From assembly GCA_046350615.1 (NCBI GenBank), contig JAXMAA010000001.1, positions 268,263-332,262 of the forward strand: a stretch of DNA of 64,000 nt, in the 5' to 3' direction. The stretch's first letter is position 1. Each line of letters opens with the position of its first letter. The translations under genes were made by a program, and so were the position numbers. The DNA comes from Candidatus Saccharimonadales bacterium (GTDB lineage Bacteria; Patescibacteriota; Saccharimonadia; Saccharimonadales; UBA7683). This document shows positions 1,291 to 63,980 of the stretch, piece after piece. Below the pieces are notes generated by a model. The model was not told the DNA's origin. It saw nothing but the letters and a program-made list of their open reading frames with translations, and searched no databases.

Positions 1291-1445
1291 ACAATCCTGT
1301 TCTTATGCACTCTGCCAAACCTTAGCAAAGATGCTATTTACATGCTCAGTGTAACAGATGTGATATACTAGTGTCACCAAGCTATATTTTGCGGTAGTGG
1401 CAAAATCTCTAGCATAACTCAAAATCTAAGTACCAGGAGGTGTGC

Positions 1446-1895
1446 ATGTACAAACGAAGGTTAACGGTTCGTGGCGTTATTATTGATGGCGAAAAAGTGT
1501 TCGCGCAGCAACTCAAAAAGACTGTGGCGAAAGGCGGTGATTGGTGGTGCACTCCTGGTGGAGGTGTTGATGACGGCGAAAGTCTGCACGATGCACTAAA
1601 CCGAGAAATGGTTGAGGAAACTGGGGTAAAACCAGTAATTGGCGAGCTTCTTTTTGTGCAGCAATATACTGACGGTGATAATTCGGAGCAGCTGGAGTTC
1701 TTCTTTCATATTACCAACACCAGTGATTACCACGCAGTTGATCTCAGCAAAACCACCCATGGAGAGATAGAAATCGCCAACTATGGATTTATCAATCCCA
1801 AAGAATTCAATTTACTTCCTGCCGAGCTGCAAGAGATCGATATTGCGAACCACATTAGCAATAATACACCAGTCATGTTCTTTACTCACCTCTGA
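1446..1895 (+). CDS. NUDIX hydrolase
   Basis: Nudix box GGGVDDGESLHDALNREMVEETGV (GX5EX7REUXEEXGU). AGGAGG sits at 1435-1440, 5 nt before ATG 1446. Confidence 0.8.
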   Translation: MYKRRLTVRGVIIDGEKVFAQQLKKTVAKGGDWWCTPGGGVDDGESLHDALNREMVEETGVKPVIGELLFVQQYTDGDNSEQLEFFFHITNTSDYHAVDLSKTTHGEIEIANYGFINPKEFNLLPAELQEIDIANHISNNTPVMFFTHL

Positions 1896-1902
1896 GAATT
1901 GT

Positions 1903-2127
1903 CTACTGATACGCTTGGGCATGCGTACCGACATCAAGGAATATAATCTGATTCTCGGTTTCCTCATAAACCACGCGGATATCCGAAGTTATCGAAAACG
2001 CAAGCTTGCCGGATAGATTACCGGTAAGCGCATGGTCATTGAGTGGGTAGCCCTTTGCATCCTGAAGAAACAGCCCATACCGTTGGTCGAAAGCGTAAGT
2101 TAACTCTCAAAACCTCCCGTTCGTCAT
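1903..2127 (-). pseudogene. RelE/YoeB-family toxin remnant
   Basis: Reverse frame reads MTNGRF*ELTYAFDQRYGLFLQDAKGYPLNDHALTGNLSGKLAFSITSDIRVVYEETENQIIFLDVGTHAQAYQ*. The C-terminal half matches the YoeB/Txe/RelE pattern (PLxxxLxGxxSxRI...RVVYxxxxxxIxxLxxGxHxxxY). There is an in-frame TGA at codon 7 (rc of 2107-2109). The ATG lies inside hairpin repeat copy 2123-2146. It is directly downstream of a DinJ-like antitoxin gene. Confidence 0.45.
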
Positions 2128-2185
2128 TCCCGCGAACGCAGGAATCCAGTTTAAATACTAGATCCCGGATCAAGTCCGGGATGAC
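2123..2185. repeat. Two tandem hairpin mini-repeats (intergenic copies of family 1)
   Basis: gtcattcccgcgaacgcaggaatc (2123-2146) and gatcccggatcaagtccgggatgac (2161-2185). The second has a perfect 8-bp stem, a TCAAG loop and a GGGATGAC right end. Confidence 0.7.
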
Positions 2186-2222
2186 ACAAGATGAGTTTTG
2201 AGAGTCAGGTACTTCCGACCTC

Positions 2223-2540
2223 TCACGAATAATCTGTTTTGTTATTGCTGCCCCGCAAGCCTTTCATAAACCCTTCAACCGTGTTAAACGGACCTTCTAT
2301 ATCAATGCCGTGCTCAACATCACGTGCAGCTTTTTGAAGCCGTGCCGCTGCTTCTGGTGTTGGCTGGCCCCAAACATCGTCAAAATCAATCTCACGACCA
2401 TCAGCCTTCGCCTTAGCCCACACGCGAATATACGCCTGAATAGAATCAAATCCTAAGTTCTTCACATACGCCTCAAACCGATCACGCACATCCGCCTCAA
2501 TCGGCACCTGAATCTTAACCATATTCGATGTTTTACTCAT
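2223..2540 (-). CDS. DinJ/RelB-family antitoxin (ribbon-helix-helix), paralog 1
   Basis: MSKTSNMVKIQVPIEADVRDRFEAYVKNLGFDSIQAYIRVWAKA follows the same pattern as the two other DinJ-like ORFs in this window (TLSIRTDEKTKAAIKAFADSLGLSVSALV and TLSIKTDPKVKAQAQKLAADLGLPLGSLI). Confidence 0.55.
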   Translation of the reverse strand: MSKTSNMVKIQVPIEADVRDRFEAYVKNLGFDSIQAYIRVWAKAKADGREIDFDDVWGQPTPEAAARLQKAARDVEHGIDIEGPFNTVEGFMKGLRGSNNKTDYS

Positions 2541-2685: not shown

Positions 2686-3498
2686 TCAATCATCTGCTAG
2701 AGGGTTGTCCTCAACTGTTTTCAAAGATGGTTTTCGGACAACACGATACCTCTCAATGCCTTCTCCGCCAAGGACTCCCCAATATAATCTTGAATTACCT
2801 CTAGCTGGGTTAATTAATCCACGTATTACAGGTGCAGTGTCTCCTGTGCTAGAAAGCCGCACGACTCTTTGCACTAAAAGGTTGAATGGACTAACACCGT
2901 ATGCATCTCGAAATTTTTCAATCTTTTCTCGACCGTCTGGAATCCCTTGTATATTGACTATCGAGAGTACCTTTGATTCGCGCTCACGATGCACATTCAA
3001 GCCCAATCGGGCAAGATACTGTCCATGATGATACAGCCTGGCCTGATACAAAGCTTCTGGACAGGGCGTTTCGAATTGCGGCCGATCATGTTGATGGGCA
3101 GCAATTCTGTCTGTAAGAACAAACTGTATATCTATGCCATCATCACACTTTTCGTCGCCGTACATTTCAACAAGATATTCCTGCGCATCTAAGTTGTCCA
3201 ACGCCCTATCAAGCTGCAAGCTGTTCTCAGGGTTAATAGTGGTTACGTGCCCACTACGGAAGCTTGTGTCAGCAGATAAGTACACAGCACCGAACGCATT
3301 CTCGAAGTTTATTGGGCGAAAACCAGTCCGCCTCTTGACTTCTTCATATCTCGCTAAAAATGGCCATCGTGGGTCATCATCTGTAGGCAAAAACCCATAC
3401 AAGCTAAAGGCTGTATCGAGAAGAACGGAAGGCTTCTGCATAAATGGCAGTTCACAGCCGTTTTTAGGTAACGGTAAGGTCCCCAGTACTCTAGACAT
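2686..3498 (-). CDS. Hypothetical protein (270 aa), directly upstream of and co-oriented with the antitoxin-like gene
   Basis: Long ORF with no recognisable motif. The ORF end at 2686 and the next start at 2540 leave a 145-nt AT-rich spacer. Confidence 0.5.
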   Translation of the reverse strand: MSRVLGTLPLPKNGCELPFMQKPSVLLDTAFSLYGFLPTDDDPRWPFLARYEEVKRRTGFRPINFENAFGAVYLSADTSFRSGHVTTINPENSLQLDRALDNLDAQEYLVEMYGDEKCDDGIDIQFVLTDRIAAHQHDRPQFETPCPEALYQARLYHHGQYLARLGLNVHRERESKVLSIVNIQGIPDGREKIEKFRDAYGVSPFNLLVQRVVRLSSTGDTAPVIRGLINPARGNSRLYWGVLGGEGIERYRVVRKPSLKTVEDNPLADD

Positions 3499-3525: not shown

Positions 3526-4374
3526 TTATGTCAATATTTGGGCATCTTCAATCTGGTGATTGCCGATTCTGGTGCGGCGGAGTTCGGTGCAGTAGGCGCC
3601 GGTTTTGAGGGTTTTGCCGATATCTTCTACCAAGGAACGGATGTAGGTGCCGCTGCTGACGTCGCAGATGCATTTGAGGTAGGGGTATTCGTAGCTTACT
3701 AGTTGTAATCTGCTGATTGTCACCTTTCGGGATGGAATCTCGAAACTCTTGCCCTCTCGGGCCAGTTTATAGGCCCGTTTGCCGTTAATTTTGATCGCAG
3801 AATAGGCCGGTGGGGTTTGGGTAATCTCTCCCGTGAACTGACGAAGTGCTTGTTGCACTTCTTCGGGAGTTGGATTATTGATAAGTGATTTTTGAAGGGA
3901 AGATAACTCGCGTTGCTCAGGACTTTCTACTGGATTCCCGATCAGGTCGGGAATGACAGAGTCGTCAGATCCTCCGTTTTCCATATTCCATATTCCGTAT
4001 TCCAAAATCTCACCTTCCGGATCGCCCGTGCTACTCACCTCACCGAGCTTTGCGGTGAACTCGTAGGTTTTATCTAGTTTTAGGTATGATGAGGCGTCTT
4101 TGCAGGCATCGCCAACTAAGATAATAAGCAGTCCGGTAGCAAATGGGTCAAGCGTGCCGGCATGACCAACTTTAATTTTTTTGGGTTTTTGGGTGGAAGG
4201 TAACTCGCTTCGCTCAGGTTCATTAAACTGGATTCCCGTCTTCACGGGAATGACGGGTCTATTTGCTATTTGCTGGTATCTGTTATCTGTGTTCCGAAGC
4301 AAGCTTCGGATGCGGGCAACCACATCAAAACTCGTCCATCCGGCTGGTTTATCAATCAGTATTACATCTTTCAT
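3526..4374 (-). CDS. truB: tRNA pseudouridine(55) synthase TruB, carrying two in-frame hairpin-repeat insertions
   Basis: ILIDKPAGWTSFDVV and KVGHAGTLDPFATGLLIILVGDA are the TruB motifs. Extra segments ...RPVIPVKTGIQF... and ...DSVIPDLIGNPVES... are encoded by repeat copies at 4230-4254 and 3932-3957. Confidence 0.9.
   Translation of the reverse strand: MKDVILIDKPAGWTSFDVVARIRSLLRNTDNRYQQIANRPVIPVKTGIQFNEPERSELPSTQKPKKIKVGHAGTLDPFATGLLIILVGDACKDASSYLKLDKTYEFTAKLGEVSSTGDPEGEILEYGIWNMENGGSDDSVIPDLIGNPVESPEQRELSSLQKSLINNPTPEEVQQALRQFTGEITQTPPAYSAIKINGKRAYKLAREGKSFEIPSRKVTISRLQLVSYEYPYLKCICDVSSGTYIRSLVEDIGKTLKTGAYCTELRRTRIGNHQIEDAQILT
3932..3957. repeat. Hairpin mini-repeat, in frame within truB
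   Basis: ggattcccgatcaggtcgggaatgac: stem attcccga/tcgggaat, loop tcagg, then GAC. On the coding strand it is translated as VIPDLIGNP. Confidence 0.75.
4230..4254. repeat. Hairpin mini-repeat, in frame within truB
   Basis: ggattcccgtcttcacgggaatgac: stem attcccgt/acgggaat. It is preceded by the shared module cgcttcgctcagg and translated as VIPVKTGIQ. Confidence 0.75.
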
Positions 4375-7866: not shown

Positions 7867-8268
7867 ATGCCAATTATCAAATCTGCAAAAAAGCGCATGA
7901 AGCAAACTGCTGTTCGACGTGCTCGCAATCAAACAACGAAACGAAGCCTACGAAGTGAAGTAAAAATACTCGCAGCAGCAATTGAGGCCAAGGATGGCAA
8001 AAAAGCCGCAGAAGCATTGAAGAAAGTTCAGAGCAATCTCGATAAAACAGTCAAGAAGAACATCTTAAAAAAGAACACCGCAGCCCGAAAGCTCGCCCGC
8101 CTTTCAGAACAAGTAAAAGCCCTCGGCGCCAAGCCAGCTACAACTACCAAAGCCAAAGCAGCCCCAAAAGCGACAAAACCAACAGAGAAGAAAGCCCCGG
8201 CAAAGAAACCCGCAGCCAAAAAACCAGCTGCTAGAGCTACGGTAAAAAAAGCTTCAACTAAAAAATAA
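7867..8268 (+). CDS. rpsT: 30S ribosomal protein S20 with a Lys/Ala-rich C-terminal extension
   Basis: MPIIKSAKKRMKQTAVRRARNQTTKRSLRSEVK is the S20 N-terminus (compare MANIKSAKKRAIQSEKAR...). The 133-aa length includes a KKPAAKKPAARATVKK histone-H1-like tail. Confidence 0.85.
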   Translation: MPIIKSAKKRMKQTAVRRARNQTTKRSLRSEVKILAAAIEAKDGKKAAEALKKVQSNLDKTVKKNILKKNTAARKLARLSEQVKALGAKPATTTKAKAAPKATKPTEKKAPAKKPAAKKPAARATVKKASTKK

Positions 8269-11554: not shown

Positions 11555-14233
11555 TTATCTGGTTTCAGAAAATGATACACGATTTTGAGAGAACGTAGCG
11601 ATAATCTTTTGGCCGTCTTTTACTTTGCCCTCGATAATTTCAAGTGCGAGCGGGTCTAACAGATCAGTTTGGATGAGACGCTTGAGTGGACGAGCGCCGT
11701 AATTTGGGTCGTAGCCAACTTCGGCCAGGTGTTTTTTGACGCTTTCATCAATGGTGAGCGTAATATTTTTACTCGTTTTGAGGTGTTTGATTACTCGCTC
11801 AAGCTGAACGCCTACAATGTTGTTCATTAATGCTTCACTGAGCCGCTCGAATACCACAATGTCATCAATACGATTAAGAAATTCTGGACGGAAGTGCGCG
11901 CGCAAACGATCGTTGAGGGCAATCTCAAGTGCTTCGTCAGTCAGCCCAATAGGGCTGTCATCCTCGGACTTGATCCGAGGATCCAGTTTATTTTGTATGC
12001 CCTTGGCATTCTTTGTTTGACTGGATTCCAAATCAAGTTTGGAATGACGGGAAGGAAAGTTGGTGTTCAAAATTAAATCGGAGCCAAGATTGCTGGTCAT
12101 GATAATCACCGTGTTGGTGAAGTTGACGGTTCTCCCTTGCCCATCAGTCAAACGCCCATCATCTAAAATCTGCAGTAGTGCATTAAAGACATCTGGATGT
12201 GCTTTTTCAACCTCATCAAACAACACTACAGCATATGGGCGGCGGCGCACAGCCTCGGTCAGCTGTCCGCCCTGCTCGTAACCAACGTAGCCCGGAGGCG
12301 AGCCAATCAGGCGAGCCACGGCGTGCTGCTCCATGTATTCGCTCATGTCAATGCGCACCATGGCATCTTCATCATCAAATAACTGTTCGGCTAGAGCTTT
12401 GGCAGTTTCGGTTTTACCCACACCGGTTGGACCCAAGAATAAGAACGAGCCGATTGGCCGACCCTCATCGGAAATACCGGCGCGTGAACGGCGAATGGCA
12501 TTGGCCACTGCGGTGATAGCCCGATCTTGCCCAATCACCCGCTTTTCCAACTCCTTTTCAAGATGCACCAGCTTCTCAGATTCGCTCTCTAATAAGCGCG
12601 AAACCGGAATGCCGGTCCAGCGTGCTACCACTCTAGCAATATCTTCGCTCGTCACCTCCTCTTTCAAAAGGCGCTTGTCGCCATCAAGCTTTGCAAGCTC
12701 ACTCTTAGCTTTGGCAATGGCTTTCTCGGCTTCCGGAATTTTGCCGTACTGTAATTCACCAGCTTTTGCGAGATCGTTCTCGCGCTGGGCAGCCTCAAGC
12801 TCCGATTTGTACTGATCGAGATTCTCACTAGCTTGGTTTAAATTATCAATCAGTTCTTTTTCACGCAGCCACTGCGTTTCCAGCCCGCTCGAAGATTCCT
12901 TTAAATCTGCGATCTGCTGCTCAAGCTCTTTTTTGCGCGCCTTAGCACTCTCGGACTTATCTTTTTTGAGCGTGGTAAGCTCAATCTCGAGCTGCATTTG
13001 CTTGCGTTTTGCTCTATCAAGCTCGGTTGGCATGCTTTCTATCTCAATTTTGAGTGCCGAGGTGGCTTCATCTATTAAATCCACCGCTTTGTCGGGCAAG
13101 AATCTATCAGCAATGTAGCGGTCACTCAGCCGCGCCGCCGCAATTAACGCATCGTCAGTAATCTTCACGCCGTGGTGAATTTCGTACTTTTCTTGCAAAC
13201 CCCTGAGAATGGCGATTGAATCTTCTACGCTCGGCTCATTCACATACACCGGCTGAAAACGCCGCTCTAAGGCTGCGTCTTTTTCAACGTACTGCCGGTA
13301 TTCATCGAGCGTTGTTGCTCCAATTAGGTGCATTTTGCCGCGCGCGAGTGAAGGCTTAATCATATTACCGGCGTCAACCGAACCCTCTGATTTTCCCGCG
13401 CCAACAATGGTGTGCAGCTCATCAACAAACAAAATAATTTCGCCATCAGATTTTTCTACCTCGTCAATCACCGCCTTAAAACGCTCTTCAAATTCGCCTC
13501 GATATTTTGCGCCAGCCAGAAGACTGCCGATACTCAGCTCAATCAGCTTCTTATTTTTTAGACTACTCGGCACGTCGCCATTCACAATGCGCTGCGCCAA
13601 ACCTTCAGCAATAGCTGTTTTACCCACGCCTGGCTCGCCAATCAGCACCGGATTATTTTTAGTACGGCGAGAAAGTACCTGCATCACGCGCCGAATTTCT
13701 TCATCACGGCCAATAACCGGATCTAACTTGCCACTCCGAGCCAGCTCGGTGAAATCCTGCCCATATTTTTCCAGCACATTTTGCTTATTTTCAGGAGATT
13801 GATCCATAACCTTCCGCCCTCCTCGCACACTTTCAATATTATTTTTAAGCTCATTGTAATCTACGTTAATCAACTTTTGTTCCGCCGCCGCCAAAAGCAC
13901 ATGCTCAGTACTCACGTGCGTGTCGCCGAGATTCTTCGCCTCTTTTTCGGCCCGCTCAATCAGCTTAATGAATTCTCTGTTTGGTCTGATATCAACACTC
14001 GAGACCTCCGCACTACTCTTAGCTACAGCATCGAGACCGTTATTCACAATCCGCACCACCTCATCGCGCACATTCGCCCGATCAATCAAAATCGTAAACG
14101 TCGTATCCGCTTGCTCAAGTAGTGCCTTTAGTAAGTGCCACTGAGAAAACTCCAGATTTTGATGCTCACGAGCCAACTCCACCGCTCGCTGCAGCGCCTC
14201 AATCATCTTATGAGTCAATGAATCCGTATTCAT
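11555..14233 (-). CDS. clpB: ATP-dependent chaperone ClpB, with two in-frame hairpin-repeat insertions near the C-terminus
   Basis: Two AAA+ modules ([10 protein letters not shown] and GPTGVGKTE), a coiled-coil middle domain and a Clp N-domain. The extra segment ...[42 protein letters not shown]... lies between MTSNLGS and [10 protein letters not shown]. Confidence 0.95.
11957..11983. repeat. Hairpin mini-repeat, in frame within clpB
   Basis: gtcatcctcggacttgatccgaggatc (reverse orientation): stem atcctcgga/tccgaggat, loop TCAAG. Translated as DPRIKSEDD. Confidence 0.75.
12023..12048. repeat. Hairpin mini-repeat, in frame within clpB
   Basis: ggattccaaatcaagtttggaatgac: stem attccaaa/tttggaat, loop TCAAG. 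Translated as HSKLDLESS. Confidence 0.75.
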
Positions 14234-15007: not shown

Positions 15008-15036
15008 TTGCATTTGTGTTACTTTTGCTATACAAT
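15008..15036 (+). promoter_or_regulatory. Sigma-70-type promoter of the dinJ-yafQ module
   Basis: TTGCAT (15008-15013), 17-nt spacer, TACAAT (15031-15036). ATG at 15044, so the transcript is nearly leaderless. Confidence 0.5.
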
Positions 15037-15043
15037 GTTGCAC

Positions 15044-15349
15044 ATGAATACGACTACACTCAGTATTAGAACAGATGAGAAGACGAAGGCGGCTATTAAA
15101 GCATTCGCGGATTCGCTCGGTCTTTCAGTCAGCGCGCTTGTGACCACCACCATGCGTCAAACTATCAAAAACGGAAGTGTCACGCTCACGCCACTTGAAC
15201 CCACACCATATCTTGAGGAAATCATGCGGGAGGCTGAAGAAGATCTGAAGGCGGGCCGAGAAGTCACGACTATTCATAATGAAGAAGAACTAAATAGTCT
15301 TTTTGAGGATCTGGGGCATAATGATCTTAAAACTCAGCAAAAAATGTAA
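15044..15349 (+). CDS. DinJ/RelB-family antitoxin, paralog 2
   Basis: MNTTTLSIRTDEKTKAAIKAFADSLGLSVSALVTTTMRQTI is a DinJ-like ribbon-helix-helix fold. Confidence 0.7.
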   Translation: MNTTTLSIRTDEKTKAAIKAFADSLGLSVSALVTTTMRQTIKNGSVTLTPLEPTPYLEEIMREAEEDLKAGREVTTIHNEEELNSLFEDLGHNDLKTQQKM

Positions 15350-15581
15350 GAGACAAATTGAAAACTTACCTCTCGCACAATAAAAACGCCTCCACACGGT
15401 ATTTTTGCTCTTTATGCGCGAGCCACACCACAAATCACTTTATAACCACCCCCTAACAGGTAACTGGAAGGGCTACCGTTCTATCAGCTTTGGTGGCAAC
15501 TGGCGAGCACACTATAAGGTTATTGATGAAAACACCGCCTATTTTGTAACACTTGGCAGTCATAGCCAGCTATACAAGTAG
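15321..15581 (+). pseudogene. YafQ/RelE-family toxin gene interrupted by an in-frame TAA
   Basis: Single frame MILKLSKKCKRQIENLPLAQ*KRLHTVFLLFMREPHHKSLYNHPLTGNWKGYRSISFGGNWRAHYKVIDENTAYFVTLGSHSQLYK*. TAA at 15381-15383. The C-terminus matches the YafQ pattern HPLxGxWKGYRxxHxxxDxxLIYK...G.H..L. It overlaps the antitoxin 3' end by 29 nt, a typical arrangement. Confidence 0.6.
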
Positions 15582-18606: not shown

Positions 18607-19101
18607 TCACGCATAGATACCACTTAGCTCATTGCGAACACGCATCAATATAAGGCCAAGATGATTCTCGCCGTCAGTACTACCTATTGGGTCTACACCC
18701 CAGAACCGATCACCCCAATCATTACCTTCAACTAGCTCTTCGACACCGGTCTGAGCAAGTAATAATGCGATGTCGTGATTGGCTGCGAATTTCCGCTTCA
18801 CCGCCTCGTACATTAAATCAAGCTTTGCGTTTGGCCAGTCTGGGAGCTGCTCTTCACCGGAATCTACGAGCTTTCGTGCGAAACTTTTAACTGCCTTTCC
18901 ATTCGCATACCAAGAGGCATCGCTCGGCTCGGCACGAATCTCAGCGACTTCACGTTGGACATCAGGATCAACAAATCGGCCCGACATATACACATGCTCA
19001 GAAGTAGGAACTTGAATACCGCAAAGTGCCAAGATTGGTACCTTCAGTGGGTACATATTACTGAGGTAAAAATGCTCACCCCGAAAACGTTCGATTGTCA
19101 T
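18607..19101 (-). CDS. NADAR (YbiA-like) domain protein
   Basis: N-terminal FRGEHFYLSNMYP matches the DUF1768/NADAR signature (FxGxYxFLSNF). Confidence 0.65.
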   Translation of the reverse strand: MTIERFRGEHFYLSNMYPLKVPILALCGIQVPTSEHVYMSGRFVDPDVQREVAEIRAEPSDASWYANGKAVKSFARKLVDSGEEQLPDWPNAKLDLMYEAVKRKFAANHDIALLLAQTGVEELVEGNDWGDRFWGVDPIGSTDGENHLGLILMRVRNELSGIYA

Positions 19102-21899
19102 AAATCACCCCAAGTTTTGCCGGATTTTACATCTACTTTTAATTTTACAGGGAGTTTGGTGTAAATATTTTCCATGATTTCAATTAGAAGCTTCTCTACT
19201 TCTTCAGTTTGTGATTCTTTGCACTCAACAATGATTGAATCGTGAATCTGCAGCAACTGACGCGGAGCGTCATCCTCAGCTTGACTGGGGATCTCGTTAG
19301 TATTGGCACGAGATCCCCGATCAAGCCGGGAATGACGGCTACCCATACCCATCAGTTTTTTATCTACTTCGATCATTGCTAGCTTCATTAAGTCCGCCTC
19401 TGTACCCTGAATTGGCATGTTCATAGCTGCCCGTTCTGCACTTGAGCGAACAATAAAATTACTCGATGTAATATCTGGCATCGGTCGCCGCCTACCAAAT
19501 AACGTCTCGACATAGCCTTTACTCTTGGCTGTTTCAATCAATTCAGCCGTGTAGTCAAACAGGGGTTTTCGTAGTTCTTTGTACCGAGTGAGAAACTCTT
19601 TGGCTTCATTTAAATTCATGCCGGTAGCCACACTTAAGCCGTGAGTGCTCATACCGTATAAAATGCCGAAGTTAATTACCTTGGCGTGTCGGCGTTGATC
19701 TGGAGTGACCTCGTGCGGCTTGATACCGTATACCTGCGCAGCTGTGGCGGTGTGAATATCGGCATCTTGATTGAACAGCTCAATAAGTTCTGTATCACCA
19801 GCCATAGCCGCCGCAAGTCGCAGTTCAAATTGGCTGTAATCGGCACTAACCAGCACATTGCCCTCCCCAGCTCTGAAGGCCTTGCGAATTTTTTTACCGA
19901 TTTCAGTGCGCACCGGGATGTTTTGTAGGTTTGGCTCGGCAGATGAAAGCCGACCGGTTTGTGCAATAGTCAGACGAAAATCGGTATGCAAACGTGAATG
20001 TTGATCAATCAGCTTCGGCAAGGCATCAACATAGGTAGACTTCAGCTTGGTATATTCACGGTACTGTGTAATCAAATTAATGATGGGATGCGACCAACGC
20101 AGTTTATCAAGCTCATTGGCAGCCGTAGAATAGCCAGTCTTGCCCTTCTTCACGCCTTGAGTTGGTAGCTTCAGATCTTCAAACAATACTTTCGCAAGTT
20201 GCGAAGGCGAGCTGATGTTAAATTCTTGGTTAGCATGGCCATACACCTCTTGTTCAATGTCAGAGATGATACCCTCAAACTCTTCACTCATTTTGGCCAA
20301 GTATGGAGCATCGAGCTCAATGCCCGCCACCTCCATACGAGCCAAAACTGAAATAATTGGCCACTCAACTTCTTCAGCCAATTTAATCAGACCGGTCAGT
20401 TCGCTCATTTGTTCACCTTGTTGATGAGCGAGGTGCGAAATAACCGCACTCAACGTGGCAGCCTTGGCGATTAACTCCTGCGAATCGATATTATCAAGTT
20501 CGGTTTCCACCCCAAGATCTCGTGCCGCCATCTCAGTTAAACTAGTCTCTCGCTGCAAGCTGTTGATTAAAAAACCGCCAATGAGCGTATCGTGTGCAAT
20601 CTGCGGTAGCACGCTGTCATCCTGAACTTGTTTCAGGATCCGTTTTGAGTCGTTGGTAGATTCTGAAACAAGTTCAGGATGACGTGCCAAGAGCAGCATT
20701 TTGAACACGTGTTTAAGGTCGTGGCCGATAACACTTTTTGGCTTGAAGTGACTGAGAACAGCCGGTAAATCATTGCCGAGCTGCTCGGCATCAAGCACGA
20801 AAACCGCCTTCTCATGCGCCAGAATAAACAGTTGTGGCTGGCTGCCAAGTGCATCGCTTGAGCGACCATACAACACAACCTCTGCTTTACCGTTCAGAGC
20901 TGCTAACTTCTCGGCATCCGAGACTGACGTAATATGTTGCACACTGCCAAGCTTCAGATCAGAAAAACCGGCCGCCGCCTGCTCCTCCTCGCCATCATCA
21001 TGATTCTGCATATGTTCTGGCAAGTTACGCAGCAAGCTTCTAAATTCAAATTTTTTAAGAAGAGTCTTGAGCTTGGCAGTATCGAGATCGTTCACGTCCA
21101 TATCCGGGAGATCAAGCTCAACTGGTGCGTCATCATAGAGCTCGGCCACCTCTTTGCTCATATATGCCGAGGCACGGCCGGCTTCCAGTTTTTTTGCAAG
21201 CGTTGGTTTAATGTGCTCGAGATTTTCGTAAACATGGGCAAGCGTGCCGTATTCTCGTAAAAGTTCGGCGGCAGTCTTCTCGCCAACCCCTGGTACACCA
21301 GGAATATTATCAGAACTATCGCCTTTCAAGCTTTTTAAATCCAGAAATTGCTCTTTTTTAATACCGTACTTGTCCTCGAACGCTGCGATATCAAACCGCT
21401 CGATGTTACTAAAACCCTTCTTGAGAGCGTAAACTTGCGTGTGCTCGCCAACACTCTGCAGGGCATCAAGATCTGAGGTAATAAGCATTGTTTCAAGCCC
21501 GGCTTTATCAGCCTTTAGGGCAAGGGTGTGCATGATATCATCAGCCTCGTAATCGTCAAACTCATAGAGCGGCCAGCTGAAAGCATCAAGCAGCTCATAG
21601 AGCAACGGAATTTGTTTATAAAAATCCTCTGGTGCTGCCTTTCGCCCAGCTTTGTACTCTGGGTGTACCGCCAAACGTCGGCGAATATTCGTTTTTGGTT
21701 TGTCCCACGCCACACAGACGTAATCTGGCTTAAGCTTCTTCAGAAGCTCTAAACTCATAGCAGCAAAGCCATACACTCCACCCGTAGGTGTACCATCTGC
21801 CATGCTTAAATTACCCATGGCATAGTAGCCACGATAAAAAACCGACTTCCCATCAATAATCGCCAGCTTCTTACGTACTTCCGTCATCATCATTGCCAA
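19098..21899 (-). CDS. polA: DNA polymerase I, with an in-frame ~30-aa insertion made of two hairpin repeats before motif C
   Basis: 5'-3' exonuclease N-terminus, 3'-5' exonuclease-like domain, polymerase motifs A (DYSQFELR) and B (RRHAKVINFGILYG), and LLQIHDSIIVE (motif C). The segment MGMGSRHSRLDRGSRANTNEIPSQAEDDAPRQ is encoded by repeat copies 19269-19336. Confidence 0.95.
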   Translation of the reverse strand: MAMMMTEVRKKLAIIDGKSVFYRGYYAMGNLSMADGTPTGGVYGFAAMSLELLKKLKPDYVCVAWDKPKTNIRRRLAVHPEYKAGRKAAPEDFYKQIPLLYELLDAFSWPLYEFDDYEADDIMHTLALKADKAGLETMLITSDLDALQSVGEHTQVYALKKGFSNIERFDIAAFEDKYGIKKEQFLDLKSLKGDSSDNIPGVPGVGEKTAAELLREYGTLAHVYENLEHIKPTLAKKLEAGRASAYMSKEVAELYDDAPVELDLPDMDVNDLDTAKLKTLLKKFEFRSLLRNLPEHMQNHDDGEEEQAAAGFSDLKLGSVQHITSVSDAEKLAALNGKAEVVLYGRSSDALGSQPQLFILAHEKAVFVLDAEQLGNDLPAVLSHFKPKSVIGHDLKHVFKMLLLARHPELVSESTNDSKRILKQVQDDSVLPQIAHDTLIGGFLINSLQRETSLTEMAARDLGVETELDNIDSQELIAKAATLSAVISHLAHQQGEQMSELTGLIKLAEEVEWPIISVLARMEVAGIELDAPYLAKMSEEFEGIISDIEQEVYGHANQEFNISSPSQLAKVLFEDLKLPTQGVKKGKTGYSTAANELDKLRWSHPIINLITQYREYTKLKSTYVDALPKLIDQHSRLHTDFRLTIAQTGRLSSAEPNLQNIPVRTEIGKKIRKAFRAGEGNVLVSADYSQFELRLAAAMAGDTELIELFNQDADIHTATAAQVYGIKPHEVTPDQRRHAKVINFGILYGMSTHGLSVATGMNLNEAKEFLTRYKELRKPLFDYTAELIETAKSKGYVETLFGRRRPMPDITSSNFIVRSSAERAAMNMPIQGTEADLMKLAMIEVDKKLMGMGSRHSRLDRGSRANTNEIPSQAEDDAPRQLLQIHDSIIVECKESQTEEVEKLLIEIMENIYTKLPVKLKVDVKSGKTWGDL
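19269..19336. repeat. Two adjacent hairpin mini-repeats in frame within polA
   Basis: gtcatcctcagcttgactggggatc (19269-19293, reverse orientation, TCAAG loop on the other strand) and gagatccccgatcaagccgggaatgac (19310-19336), followed by the conserved GG. Confidence 0.7.
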
Positions 21900-61122: not shown

Positions 61123-62769
61123 CTACATCCCCATCATTGATGGGTCCATGCCGCCGCCAGATGGAGCTGCGGGAGCTTTTTCTGGGATATCTACCACTAG
61201 TGCACCCATAGTCATAGCCGTGCCAGCAATTGACGCGGCGTTTAAAATCGCCTCTTTGGTTACACGGGCAGGATCCACCACGCCCGCCTTCTTCATATCT
61301 TGTAAGCCCGCATCTGGGTCGTTCACATTAATACCTTGACCAGCTTTACCAGCCTGCACCTGTGCAAGGAGCGCCTGAGCATTCAGACCAGCGTTCGTCA
61401 TGAGTTGTACAAACGGCTGCACCAAAGCATTCTTTAGGAGTACCGCTCCTGCTGAAGTTGAATCAGTGGCATCGTCAGTAATTGTCCCTGCAAGATTGAC
61501 CAGTGTTACACCACCGCCAGATACCACACCTTCGTCTAGGGCTGCTTTAACGGCTGCTACGGCATCGTCTACACGGAACTTCTTCTCTTCAATTTCAGTT
61601 TCAGTCGCACCACCAACCTTAATCACTGCAACTTTACCCTCTAAGGCTGCTCTGCGCTTCTCGAGGTTCTCTTTTTCGTACTCACTTGAGGCATTGCCAG
61701 CCTGAGCACTAATTTGCTCTACACGAGCTGCTACGGCCTTTGCAGAGCCTGCTCCTTCAATAATGGTGGAGTTATCTTTATCAACAATAATACGGCGAGC
61801 AGTACCAAGCATACTGATATCGGCATTCTCAAAGGTGTGGCCTTGATCTTCAGTAATCACCTGCCCACCTGTCAAAATTGCGATGTCTTCTAAAATCTCT
61901 TTACGCCGATCACCAAAAGCCGGAGCCTTAATGGCCAAGGTGTTAAACACTCCCTTCAATCTATTGAGAATCAAGGTGCCGAGTGCTTCGCCCTCGACAT
62001 CTTCGGCGATAATTACCAGATCTTTTTTACCTGTTTGCGCAACTTTTTCTAAAATTGGCAGAAATTCTTGAACTGAACTAATTTTTTTGTCGGTAATCAG
62101 TACCAACGGCTTATCGTACACCGCCTCCATACGAGCGGTATCAGTTACCATGTAGGGGCTCACAAAGCCACGGTCAAACGTAAAGCCCTCTACTACCTCT
62201 GATTCCATTACCAGGCCCTGGCCCTCTTCAACGGTAACAACACCGTCTTTGCCAACTTTTTCAATCACATCAGCGATTAGTGCGCCAATTGCCGCATCAC
62301 CAGCTGAAATGGTTGCTACTTCAGCTACTCGCTTTTTATCACCAGCGATATCTTCGCGCATGGTTCTCAGCTTCGCAATCACTCCTTCAGCAGCTTTTTC
62401 CAGACCTTTACGCAGCTGCATCGGGTTGTGGCCGGCAGCAATCAGCTTGTTTGCCTCATTCAAGATGTGGTATGTCAATACTGTAACAGTGGTAGTACCA
62501 TCACCCGCTACATCGTTCATCTTGCTGGCCGCTTGCTTAATCAGTTCAGCTCCAACTTTGTAGCCCAAAGTCTCGTCGTCTTCTGGCAACTCAATACCCT
62601 TGGCAACCGTTACGCCGTCGTGAGTAACAGTTGGGCTGCCGAAACTCTTAGAAATCACCACATTTCGGCCTTTTGGCCCCATAGTAGTTTTCACGGCGTT
62701 AAATAAAATCTCTGCCCCAGCCAGTAGGCGGCGGCGCGCGTCTTCATCGTAAAATACTTTTTTTGCCAT
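61123..62769 (-). CDS. groL: Chaperonin GroEL
   Basis: MAKKVFYDEDARRRLLAGAEILFNAVKTTMGPKGRNVV...GDGTTTVTVL...AVKAALDEGVVSGGGV and a C-terminal GGM repeat. Confidence 0.98.
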   Translation of the reverse strand: MAKKVFYDEDARRRLLAGAEILFNAVKTTMGPKGRNVVISKSFGSPTVTHDGVTVAKGIELPEDDETLGYKVGAELIKQAASKMNDVAGDGTTTVTVLTYHILNEANKLIAAGHNPMQLRKGLEKAAEGVIAKLRTMREDIAGDKKRVAEVATISAGDAAIGALIADVIEKVGKDGVVTVEEGQGLVMESEVVEGFTFDRGFVSPYMVTDTARMEAVYDKPLVLITDKKISSVQEFLPILEKVAQTGKKDLVIIAEDVEGEALGTLILNRLKGVFNTLAIKAPAFGDRRKEILEDIAILTGGQVITEDQGHTFENADISMLGTARRIIVDKDNSTIIEGAGSAKAVAARVEQISAQAGNASSEYEKENLEKRRAALEGKVAVIKVGGATETEIEEKKFRVDDAVAAVKAALDEGVVSGGGVTLVNLAGTITDDATDSTSAGAVLLKNALVQPFVQLMTNAGLNAQALLAQVQAGKAGQGINVNDPDAGLQDMKKAGVVDPARVTKEAILNAASIAGTAMTMGALVVDIPEKAPAAPSGGGMDPSMMGM

Positions 62770-62825
62770 ATACTTACTCCTTTTCTTGATATCATTTCTG
62801 CAAAAGCAGAAATCATTATGTAACT

Positions 62826-62851
62826 GGATCCCGTATCAGGTACGGGATGAC
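62826..62851. repeat. Hairpin mini-repeat in the groES-groEL spacer
   Basis: ggatcccgtatcaggtacgggatgac: stem atcccgta/tacgggat, loop TCAGG, then GAC. Confidence 0.7.
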
Positions 62852-62859
62852 GAGTCCCG

Positions 62860-63126
62860 CTACGCGAGCGTTGCCAAAATGTCTTCTTCTTTAATGATTA
62901 GATATTCGACACCATCAACCTTGACTTCAGTAGTTGAATACTCCTTGTAGACAATTCGGTCGTTAGTCTTCACAGTTTTCACATCGCTACCGGTTGCTAC
63001 AACTTTGGCAACTTTAGATTTTTCTTTGGCGCTATCTGGCAGATATAAGCCCGATGCAGTTTGGCTCTTTGCCTCTTCAACTTGGGCAACAACTCGGTCA
63101 GCCAGTGGTTTTAGCGGTACACTCAT
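62860..63126 (-). CDS. groS: Co-chaperonin GroES
   Basis: MSVPLKPLADRVVAQVEEAKSQTASGLYLPDSAKEKSKVAKVVATG, including the GroES mobile-loop region. Confidence 0.95.
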   Translation of the reverse strand: MSVPLKPLADRVVAQVEEAKSQTASGLYLPDSAKEKSKVAKVVATGSDVKTVKTNDRIVYKEYSTTEVKVDGVEYLIIKEEDILATLA

Positions 63127-63151
63127 GCACTTCCTCCTCTTTTACGTTGAT

Positions 63152-63177
63152 GTCATCCTGGGCGAAGTCGAAGGATC
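63152..63177. repeat. Hairpin mini-repeat (AGGATGAC subtype) in the groES leader
   Basis: gtcatcctgggcgaagtcgaaggatc matches the 7580-7605 copy at 24 of 26 positions. Confidence 0.7.
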
Positions 63178-63245
63178 TAATCAGATTTTCAACAAGCTCA
63201 AAACAACGAATTACAAAAATGGTACCTCTATGGTACCGCATAAAA

Positions 63246-63272
63246 TTAGCACTCGCAACCCCCAAGTGCTAA
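63246..63272. promoter_or_regulatory. CIRCE (HrcA operator) upstream of groES-groEL
   Basis: TTAGCACTC-gcaaccccc-AAGTGCTAA: 17 of 18 matches to the CIRCE consensus with a 9-nt spacer. Confidence 0.85.
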
Positions 63273-63980
63273 TTAAGCTACTGCTGTTAGATCCGTCACC
63301 TCGCCTGTTCTATTATTAAAGAGCCGCTGCGGAACAAGTGCCATATTTGCCATCTCTTCTCTCAGTAATGCTATAGCTCCAAGACGAGCCTCTACTCGAG
63401 CCGCAAATGCTCTCATTATCAATTTTTCTGCGAGTACACTTCTGGCGATATGCTCCTCAAGTGCCTCATCCCCAATCTCTACGTCCGGAAAATGCGGAGC
63501 AATGCCCTCCGCTGCAACTTGGTACCACGCTACTTCACCATCTTCATTAGTATGTTCCACAATTACATACTCTGGTTGAGCAGCTTCGTCGAGAGAAGGC
63601 CGACCAGCCTCCCTGTCGGCTGGATTACTCGGCACGAATATACGCATTGACTGCCCGACGTGGGCAGCTTCTTGCACACCTCTGCCACTTAAATAAATGC
63701 CGAGTGAATGTTGCGCTTCGTCTCCTATGAATGGTAAGTGGGTGGTATCATCGATAACATATATGCATGTCTCTGTAGGCGGCGCTTCTTGTTCGGCATA
63801 GGTAGCCTGGGCGGCATCTTGATGCTGAAATGCTACTAGAACCGCTTGGTAGGCATCGCGAATAAACTTGGCGCGCATATCGCGAGCTGTTTCTTCAAGC
63901 TCAAGTCTAATAGTTTCGTTTAATTCGGCTGCTTCCATAGCATGTAATTTATAACATTTTAAGATGCCTATTGTCAACAA
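63273..63980 (-). CDS. Hypothetical acidic protein (235 aa)
   Basis: ORF only. Its stop codon abuts the CIRCE element. Confidence 0.4.
   Translation of the reverse strand: MLTIGILKCYKLHAMEAAELNETIRLELEETARDMRAKFIRDAYQAVLVAFQHQDAAQATYAEQEAPPTETCIYVIDDTTHLPFIGDEAQHSLGIYLSGRGVQEAAHVGQSMRIFVPSNPADREAGRPSLDEAAQPEYVIVEHTNEDGEVAWYQVAAEGIAPHFPDVEIGDEALEEHIARSVLAEKLIMRAFAARVEARLGAIALLREEMANMALVPQRLFNNRTGEVTDLTAVA

Follow-up and report, generated by a model that had tools for sequence, protein, structure and literature searches.

In type II toxin-antitoxin (TA) operons of the DinJ-YafQ kind of Escherichia coli, which belong with the RelE mRNA interferases, the antitoxin gene is situated upstream of the toxin gene, and the decay of the toxin gene beside an orphan antitoxin gene, as known from reduced genomes, is an ordinary and already well-described process. 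Among the small repeats of bacteria, the Correia elements of Neisseria are miniature inverted-repeat transposable elements (MITEs), which are small and non-coding and possess terminal inverted repeats and a target duplication. A further class is given by hairpins of the NTS type and of the Ssn-related-motif (SRM) type, the patterns of which were defined in PMC11893778. The GIY-YIG nuclease SsnA cuts single-stranded DNA beside such hairpins, and their mode of spread was left open (PMC11893778). So far they have been discussed mainly as Ssn targets in Neisseria and other Pseudomonadati. Genes for ssn (GIY-YIG, cd10448) typically have the motif on their flanks. Here we describe a locus at which these systems meet. 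It is located near the start of a stretch of 64,000 nt from the genome of a Candidatus Saccharimonadales bacterium (contig JAXMAA010000001.1 of assembly GCA_046350615.1), hereafter called the window, and very probably represents the remains of a dinJ-yafQ-like type II TA operon, in which the antitoxin gene is intact and the toxin gene has at least three lesions, one of them caused by a hairpin-carrying MITE. The toxin decay as such is routine; the hairpin cargo of the MITE is the point of moderate interest.

Comparison with Described Systems

Like DinJ-YafQ of E. coli and the RelE mRNA interferases, the toxin remnant and its orthologs match the YafQ_toxin model, the antitoxin gene lies upstream, and in the orthologs both genes overlap. 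Moreover, the antitoxin of the window is predicted to consist of an N-terminal strand and two helices followed by C-terminal helices, and the profile of its family aligns end to end with DinJ. The locus differs in that its toxin gene is a pseudogene and in that the antitoxin stays under all RelB/DinJ hidden Markov model (HMM) thresholds and belongs to a small family without a Pfam model. With the orphan antitoxins and toxin pseudogenes of reduced genomes it shares an intact antitoxin gene beside a disabled toxin gene, as does a second module of the window at ~15.0-15.6 kb, and nothing sets it apart from them except that one lesion is a MITE.

The inserted element resembles the Correia elements in its small size (about 113 nt), its lack of coding capacity, its terminal inverted repeats, its strong self-folding and its capacity to disrupt genes, and, as seen outside the window, in its target duplication and several copies per genome. 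Unlike these, it has the ends ACCTGACTCTCAAAAC, a target duplication of 6 bp rather than the dinucleotide TA, two convergent Ssn-related hairpins inside, and hosts among the Saccharibacteria and in a metagenome-assembled genome (MAG) labelled Candidatus Limnocylindria. The hairpins themselves match the dRS3/NTS and SRM repeats of Neisseria (PMC11893778), are oriented by the same GTCAT...ATCCAG flanks and are likewise repeated in the genome. Unlike the repeats described there, those of the toxin locus form part of an element that has inverted repeats and duplications, and others in the window are embedded in essential genes and keep their frame; PMC11893778 makes no mention of Patescibacteria, and a crude motif regular expression gave no ssn candidate in the 64 kb. 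Rickettsia palindromic elements, too, are short palindromic repeats that occur in coding genes and keep the frame, as seen in truB and clpB of the window, whereas the insertion in the toxin locus is out of frame and the gene is dead. As far as tested, the sequences are unrelated.

Toxin Gene and Intact Orthologs

An earlier note on the window, made from the letters alone, had described a decayed TA module with a DinJ-like antitoxin and a YoeB/RelE-like toxin remnant. Both the open reading frames (ORFs) and the orthologs bear out the module, in which the antitoxin gene is intact and the toxin gene, a member of the RelE superfamily, is dead. In the HMM check the remnant (ELTYAFDQRY...GTHAQAYQ) matches Pfam YafQ_toxin PF15738 with 34 bits (cutoff 30), the match being confined to profile positions 43-85 of 88, and NCBIfam TIGR02385 RelE_StbE falls just under its cutoff (26.9 vs 27.9 bits). 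The YoeB part of the assignment was dropped, since PF06769 (E 0.039; 14.4 bits vs a cutoff of 27) and TIGR02116 (13.5 vs 51.8) score far below their cutoffs; ParE is far under threshold as well. A database search returned 34 homologs of the remnant, mostly of 85-93 aa and all with PF15738. The best of these, P0010, is an intact protein of 90 aa with 85% identity.

The genes of P0010 and of the antitoxin homolog P0005 are adjacent in GCA_964643895.1 (L002) and in an SRA assembly (L001). The gene order of both loci (S20, large protein, PIG-L, TruB, unknown, antitoxin, toxin, NUDIX) agrees with that of the window. Locus L005 shares the upstream order from the large protein to the toxin; in addition it possesses a PIN gene, and the NUDIX gene is absent downstream. 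Altogether, an intact toxin gene of the YafQ/RelE family (89-91 aa) occurs in five related loci, three of which are syntenic, and overlaps the 3' end of the upstream antitoxin gene, with overlaps of 17-26 nt in the orthologs. Loci with an intact YafQ-family toxin gene include L005, L006, and L007, where the overlap amounts to 20-26 nt; L003 and L004 encode an identical intact toxin protein P0010. Locus L008 is a contig of 551 nt and shows only the first ~45 toxin codons.

Compared to these orthologs, the toxin gene of the window carries at least three independent lesions, i.e., the loss of the start codon, a deletion of ~38 nt, and the insertion of the MITE (Table 1). The ancestral ATG, which sits in GCAGCAATGACGAA in L008 and L005, is changed to ATA at 2245-2243 in the window, where the corresponding motif is GCAGCAATAACAAA. 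In full, the start junction reads GCAGCAATAACAAAACAGATTATTCGT in the window, GCAGCAATGACGAAACCGATAGTCCGT (MTKPIVR) in L008 and GCAGCAATGACGAAGATTGTTCGT in L005. The six codons after the ATA (TKQIIR) still match MTKPIVR, and the overlap of the antitoxin gene with the toxin 5' remnant is still recognisable. Codon 7 is situated directly at the antitoxin stop, and the deletion that follows it takes out codons ~8-22 and causes a frameshift: CGGAAGT begins 29 nt past the start position in the window vs nt 67 in L002 and L008.

The third lesion, an insertion of 108 nt, falls between toxin codons 24 and 25. Where L002 reads continuously TCGGAAGTTAACTCACGC, the window has TCGGAAGT, the 108 nt, and TAACTTACGC, and L001 and L002 are both uninterrupted (TCGGAAGTTAAC) at the exact insertion point, i.e., the intact orthologs without the repeat that the note had proposed to look for do exist. 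GGAAGT at 2216-2211 is the expected 6-bp target site. Thus the locus provides a filled and an empty MITE site in Saccharibacteria that can be compared with the precision of a single base. The note had placed the hairpins in or next to the toxin start. A true insertion into the toxin gene is indeed present, at codons 24/25 and with the start further upstream.

The N-terminal ~24 of 90 residues are missing from the toxin gene, a part which we take to hold the first strand and the first helix of the RelE/YafQ folds. Instead of a complete, translatable YafQ toxin ORF of ~85-95 aa, we found an ATA start, the ~38-nt deletion, the MITE and an in-frame TGA. Judged from the sequence, this is a YafQ/RelE-family pseudogene. 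Most likely no toxin would be made from it, as it lacks both a usable start and the N-terminal residues. In the remnant, the nearly invariant GKR motif has L in place of R, and QVY has A in place of V. Against L002 the ratio of nonsynonymous to synonymous substitutions (dN/dS) of the remnant is 0.18 (dS 0.44), and there are zero internal stops over 65 codons. Due to both observations we presume that the decay is comparatively recent relative to the L002 split and that the divergence of the toxin mostly predates its loss of function.

The 75-codon frame (stop counted) of the note was confirmed on the minus strand, with its ATG at 2127-2125 inside a hairpin, TGA as codon 7 (2109-2107) and TAG at 1905-1903. 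This frame is chimeric. The MITE contributes codons 1-8 together with the initial base of codon 9 (tta), and the remainder is the authentic 3' part of the toxin gene. On this comparison the hairpin ATG has never served as toxin start, and for annotation it should be kept in mind that the apparent frame owes both its ATG and its TGA to the element and not to the gene.

The long open 3' remnant with its low dN/dS might be taken as a sign that the frame is a live gene, expressed by readthrough or recoding of the TGA or as a short toxin from an internal start. This is hardly credible, since codons 1-8 are MITE sequence and ~24 of the 90 residues would be missing from the N-terminus of the product. 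None of the other ATG, GTG or TTG starts in the 75-codon frame gives an ORF of at least 25 aa, and past the TGA the sole candidate in frame is a GTG with a predicted product of 23 aa. Furthermore, TGA is a normal stop in this genome, because it terminates 8 of the 45 ORFs of at least 200 aa in the window. The antitoxin gene, too, stops at TGA at the homologous position where its homologs use TAA. Recoding of TGA (code 4 or 25) was dismissed on these grounds.

Which lesion came first bears on the note's link between repeat mobility and gene inactivation. The link is partly supported: the insertion does split the gene, beside at least two other lesions. By itself the insertion would cause a frameshift and bring in the TGA, and the MITE itself has decayed by 11 nt, so that it is not a very recent arrival. 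Both points are compatible with the insertion as the primary killing event, followed by start change and 38-nt deletion as later decay, an order of events that we consider possible, if rather doubtful. Each of the three lesions is sufficient alone, no relative with a subset of them was found (the cluster has a single member), and a second toxin gene in the window was killed by a nonsense codon in the absence of any repeat. With three or more independent lesions, the sequences do not reveal which came first, nor do they allow the inactivation to be ascribed to the insertion.

Table 1. Features of the decayed TA locus and synteny markers in the window, sorted by position.
Feature	Position	Strand	Basis or remark
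NUDIX gene	1440-1895		window synteny marker
Toxin 3' remnant, ancestral codons ~25-90 and TAG (1905-1903), open frame without start codon	1903-2102	-	PF15738, TIGR02385, ortholog alignment
MITE insertion, 108 nt	2103-2210	.	inverted repeats, empty ortholog site, shared ends
Hairpin B, NTS type, CGTCATTCCCGCGAACGCAGGAATCCAG	2122-2149	+	NTS consensus; encloses spurious ATG 2127-2125 (-)
Hairpin A, SRM type, TGTCATCCCGGACTTGATCCGGGATCTAG	2158-2186	-	published SRM pattern
Toxin fragment, codons ~23-25, TCGGAAGT, left flank of insertion	2211-2218	-	L002 alignment
Deletion scar, ~38 nt lost compared to orthologs	2219-2224	-	junction comparison
Antitoxin gene, intact, 105 aa	2223-2540	-	ORF; stop TGA 2225-2223
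Toxin 5' remnant, codons 1-7, overlaps antitoxin 3' end	2225-2245	-	junction comparison
TruB gene	3526-4374		window synteny marker
S20 gene	7867-8268		window synteny marker

The Inserted Element and Its Relatives

By its anatomy the insert is a MITE, as far as this can be read from the sequence. Its left terminal inverted repeat ACCTGACTCTCAAAAC is complete (16 nt, 2210-2195, minus strand), and its right repeat is reduced to GTTTTGAGAGT (2113-2103), i.e., 11 of 16 nt. Within the insert, perfect inverted repeats of 11 nt are thus found at 2103-2113 and 2195-2205. The insert region folds far better than shuffled sequences, with z-scores of -5.4 for DNA and -7.4 for RNA. Taken together, 11 nt are lost from the copy in the window, namely CAGGT (5 nt) of the right end and the second GGAAGT, and AGT microhomology is present at the bounds of the loss. 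Because of this loss the copy is probably immobile now. An initial candidate, the simple excision of 2103-2205 at the 11-nt repeats with in-frame fusion of the flanks, was dropped, since the true element spans 2103-2210 and the 38-nt deletion is a separate event.

Relatives were found in two scans. In 185,579 species-representative genomes, the pattern ACTCTCAAAAC-N66-96-GTTTTGAGAGT detected four loci, of which three belong to a MAG labelled Candidatus Limnocylindria and the fourth to a MAG of Candidatus Saccharibacteria. In metagenomes, a scan with the extended ends as query detected five loci, of which three are the same insertions as those of the Limnocylindria-labelled MAG. Six other insertions (L009, L010, L011, L012, L015, and L017) from four other genomes or metagenomes have identical 16-nt ends (ACCTGACTCTCAAAAC ... 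GTTTTGAGAGTCAGGT), both of which are complete in all six. Perfect target duplications of 6 bp flank four of them (TCTGAT, TTTAGT, CTATCC, and GATTAA); in the remaining two the duplication is ATAGTA/ATAGAA with one mismatch or, in case of L015, imperfect. The left boundary of the element in the window, as derived from the ortholog alignment (GGAAGT|ACCTG), is the very terminus that is set independently by the six other insertions. As the ortholog-derived boundary coincides with the shared terminus, the MITE reading gains independent support.

Two convergent hairpins are present in four of the six other insertions (the three Limnocylindria copies and L017), and the copy in the window has the same layout, which runs from one end through GTCAT-stem-loop-stem-ATCCAGT, a spacer and the reverse complement of this unit to the other end. 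L011 and L015 have the same ends with other interiors that are free of SRM hairpins. Since these two share the ends and differ inside, the ends and not the hairpins define the mobile unit. The note had regarded the hairpins as the mobile repeat; this role falls to the 108-nt MITE with its 16-nt ends, and the hairpins did not move by themselves.

The Limnocylindria-labelled MAG contains three full copies of the MITE and shorter variants. The latter include a 67-nt mini-version with near-identical ends (L012, 6864-6930; L016, 7818-7884) and solitary ends, one of them at L016 12397-12412. Mini-versions and solitary ends suggest that the family is active, or was so recently, in this MAG. In the loci fetched from it, all SRM hairpins except one lie inside MITEs.

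Neither the MITE family nor its hairpin cargo appears to have been described. A BLAST search of the element against plasmids and phages returned nothing relevant, an Rfam scan gave only a chance match below threshold, a search of full texts gave no relevant paper with the MITE end sequence, and the top-ranked matches of a literature search on MITEs in Patescibacteria and Saccharibacteria included no mention of MITEs. Whether the insertions constitute one undescribed MITE family with the ends ACCTGACTCTCAAAAC, a 6-bp duplication and a convergent pair of Ssn-related (NTS-like) hairpins as the usual cargo, common to Saccharibacteria and to the MAG labelled Limnocylindria (Chloroflexota), is in our view evenly balanced. 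If so, classical cut-and-paste or copy-and-paste transposition would be one vehicle for the spread of such hairpins within genomes and between distant phyla, a question that was left open in PMC11893778.

Hairpins of the NTS and SRM Types

Hairpin A has a perfect stem of 8 bp (2162-2169/2175-2182), and hairpin B deviates in a single mismatch from the 28-nt NTS consensus of Neisseria, CGTCATTCCCGCGMAVGCGGGAATCYRG (PMC11893778). The note had called them tandem hairpin repeats. They turned out to be convergent, i.e., situated on opposite strands, and to represent different variants. Five matches to the SRM pattern occur in the window vs 0.17 in simulated sequences, which corresponds to an enrichment of ~30-fold, and the NTS consensus has two matches (one mismatch at 2122-2149, two mismatches at 4228-4255) vs none in shuffled sequences. 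All in all, the window contains about eleven hairpins of the NTS/SRM class.

As hairpins and hairpin pairs at 3930, 4228, 11957/12021, 19269/19309, 20616, and 62824 are devoid of the MITE inverted repeats, it could be argued that the hairpins are autonomous mobile units of the NTS/SRM kind, the movement of which would depend on a GIY-YIG nuclease of the Ssn type or on an enzyme of the REP type, and that the inverted repeat of 11-16 nt is incidental. The speculation in PMC11893778 that NTS-ssnA-NTS resembles a mobile element points in the same direction. We regard this as improbable for the insertion in the toxin gene. Other genomes show the same layout, with 16-nt ends that are identical and with duplications of 6 bp, in unrelated contexts, L011 and L015 retain the ends without SRM hairpins, and no GIY-YIG or ssn candidate ORF was seen in the 64-kb window or in the fetched loci with the crude motif expression. 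With the MITE as the mobile unit, the NTS/SRM-type hairpins travel as its cargo, which suggests a testable route for their multiplication.

Antitoxin Gene

The antitoxin is 100% identical to the NCBI protein U0520_01455, annotated as hypothetical, of a Candidatus Saccharimonadales MAG and comprises a ribbon-helix-helix-like N-terminal domain and a helical C-terminal region. It has no match to any Pfam, NCBIfam or PADLOC model. Nine close relatives were found, and an exhaustive profile search extended the family to 106 representative clusters (E up to 0.001). Of 76 relatives, two match RelB PF04221 (best E 1.7e-4) and one matches RHH_1. When the 76-sequence profile was used to search the PDB, DinJ (E 0.13, 0.73, and 1.1), CopG (0.34) and NikR were among the matches, all of which are below significance (E 0.13-1.1 overall); the 9-sequence profile gave no useful match. 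In hhalign the 76-sequence profile aligns to E. coli DinJ with a probability of 75% and an E of 2.5e-5 over 75 columns. The DinJ ribbon-helix-helix pattern read by the note is therefore found at the profile level and has no counterpart among the Pfam and NCBIfam models. The term DinJ-like is reasonable for the presumed mode of action of the antitoxin, and in sequence it is a putative DinJ relative at the level of profiles only.

The AlphaFold model built from 76 sequences has a pLDDT of 83.6 and predicts helices at residues 16-28, 34-46, 62-76, and 88-100, whereas the model from nine sequences is poor (pLDDT 50). The predicted layout of the helices fits a ribbon-helix-helix N-terminal domain and a toxin-wrapping tail. 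For the N-terminal 62 codons, counted from MVKIQ, dN/dS amounts to 0.04-0.10, which indicates that the antitoxin gene is under purifying selection. Lineage-specific changes in the antitoxin of the window are found exclusively in the C-terminal half (5 out of 5). Relaxed constraint on toxin binding would be in keeping with this, the numbers being too small for proof.

Most likely the antitoxin persists as an orphan and would act as a DNA-binding protein that probably represses its own gene. It may still protect against related incoming toxins. The stable hairpins just past the antitoxin stop may end or stabilise the antitoxin transcript; in a promoter and terminator scan, hairpin A together with a T-rich stretch was flagged as terminator-like.

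Several observations weigh against the interpretation of the locus as a dinJ-yafQ-like operon disrupted by a MITE. The DinJ or ribbon-helix-helix label of the antitoxin derives from profile matches below threshold, and Foldseek returned zero matches of the antitoxin model in the PDB. The second copy of the target duplication is absent in the window, so that the local hallmark of transposition is lost, and only one copy of the MITE occurs in the 64 kb. A transposase with matching ends was not detected; in L012, where end-like sequences are separated by 3.2 kb, the interval contains only housekeeping genes (Obg and exonuclease I). A role of the hairpins at the end of the transcript is purely conjectural. 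Finally, the sequence stems from a MAG, and short repeats are classic breakpoints of assemblies, which raises the question of an assembly or binning artefact in which a repeat was mis-joined into the toxin gene. Such an artefact is very improbable, because the flanks of the insertion correspond to adjoining halves of a single ortholog sequence, two more independent lesions are found beyond the repeat, and the contig has a length of 351 kb. The locus is one more example of a reduced episymbiont genome that lost a toxin and kept its antitoxin, and the window contains a second one.

Further Modules, Genes, and Repeats in the Window

The window has a G+C content of 46.9% and long, densely packed ORFs. 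Its second decayed module (15008-15581, plus strand) consists of an intact RelB-family antitoxin gene (15008-15349; PF04221, 28.3 bits) and a RelE/YafQ-like toxin frame (...NHPLTGNWKGYRSISF...GSHSQLYK) with an in-frame TAA after ~20 codons. No hairpin repeat is involved. Since this second toxin gene died by a plain TAA, toxin loss in this genome is independent of repeats.

Between the TruB gene and the antitoxin gene of the first module, a protein of 270 aa without a Pfam domain is encoded (2686-3498, minus strand). Its counterpart occurs at the same position in L001, L002, and L005 with a length of 303-386 aa.

In case of TruB (minus strand), the hairpins at 3930-3957 and 4228-4255 are translated as VIPDLIGNP and VIPVKTGIQ. 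The first is located at the same position in two orthologs (L002, 4219-4246; L005, 3082-3108), with a stem and loop variant in L005 that reads VIPAEAGIQ. The second lies inside a segment that takes the place of a loop in the orthologs and exceeds it by ~25 aa. An interpretation of this 5' hairpin region as a clean insertion was rejected, as it replaced a variable loop instead.

The ClpB gene (11555-14233, minus strand) contains a convergent pair of SRM-type hairpins at 11957-12048, which is in frame and falls into the second AAA domain. The AAA_2 match spans 201 residues for a profile of 166 positions, and the repeat pair thus appears to encode ~30-35 extra residues. A further convergent pair (19269-19336) and a single hairpin (20616-20643) are located in an ORF of 933 aa (19098-21899, minus strand). 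Between the ORFs 61123-62769 and 63005-63319, an SRM hairpin (62824-62851, minus strand) is followed by an AT-rich hairpin, ATTTCTGCTTTTGCAGAAAT, near 62790.

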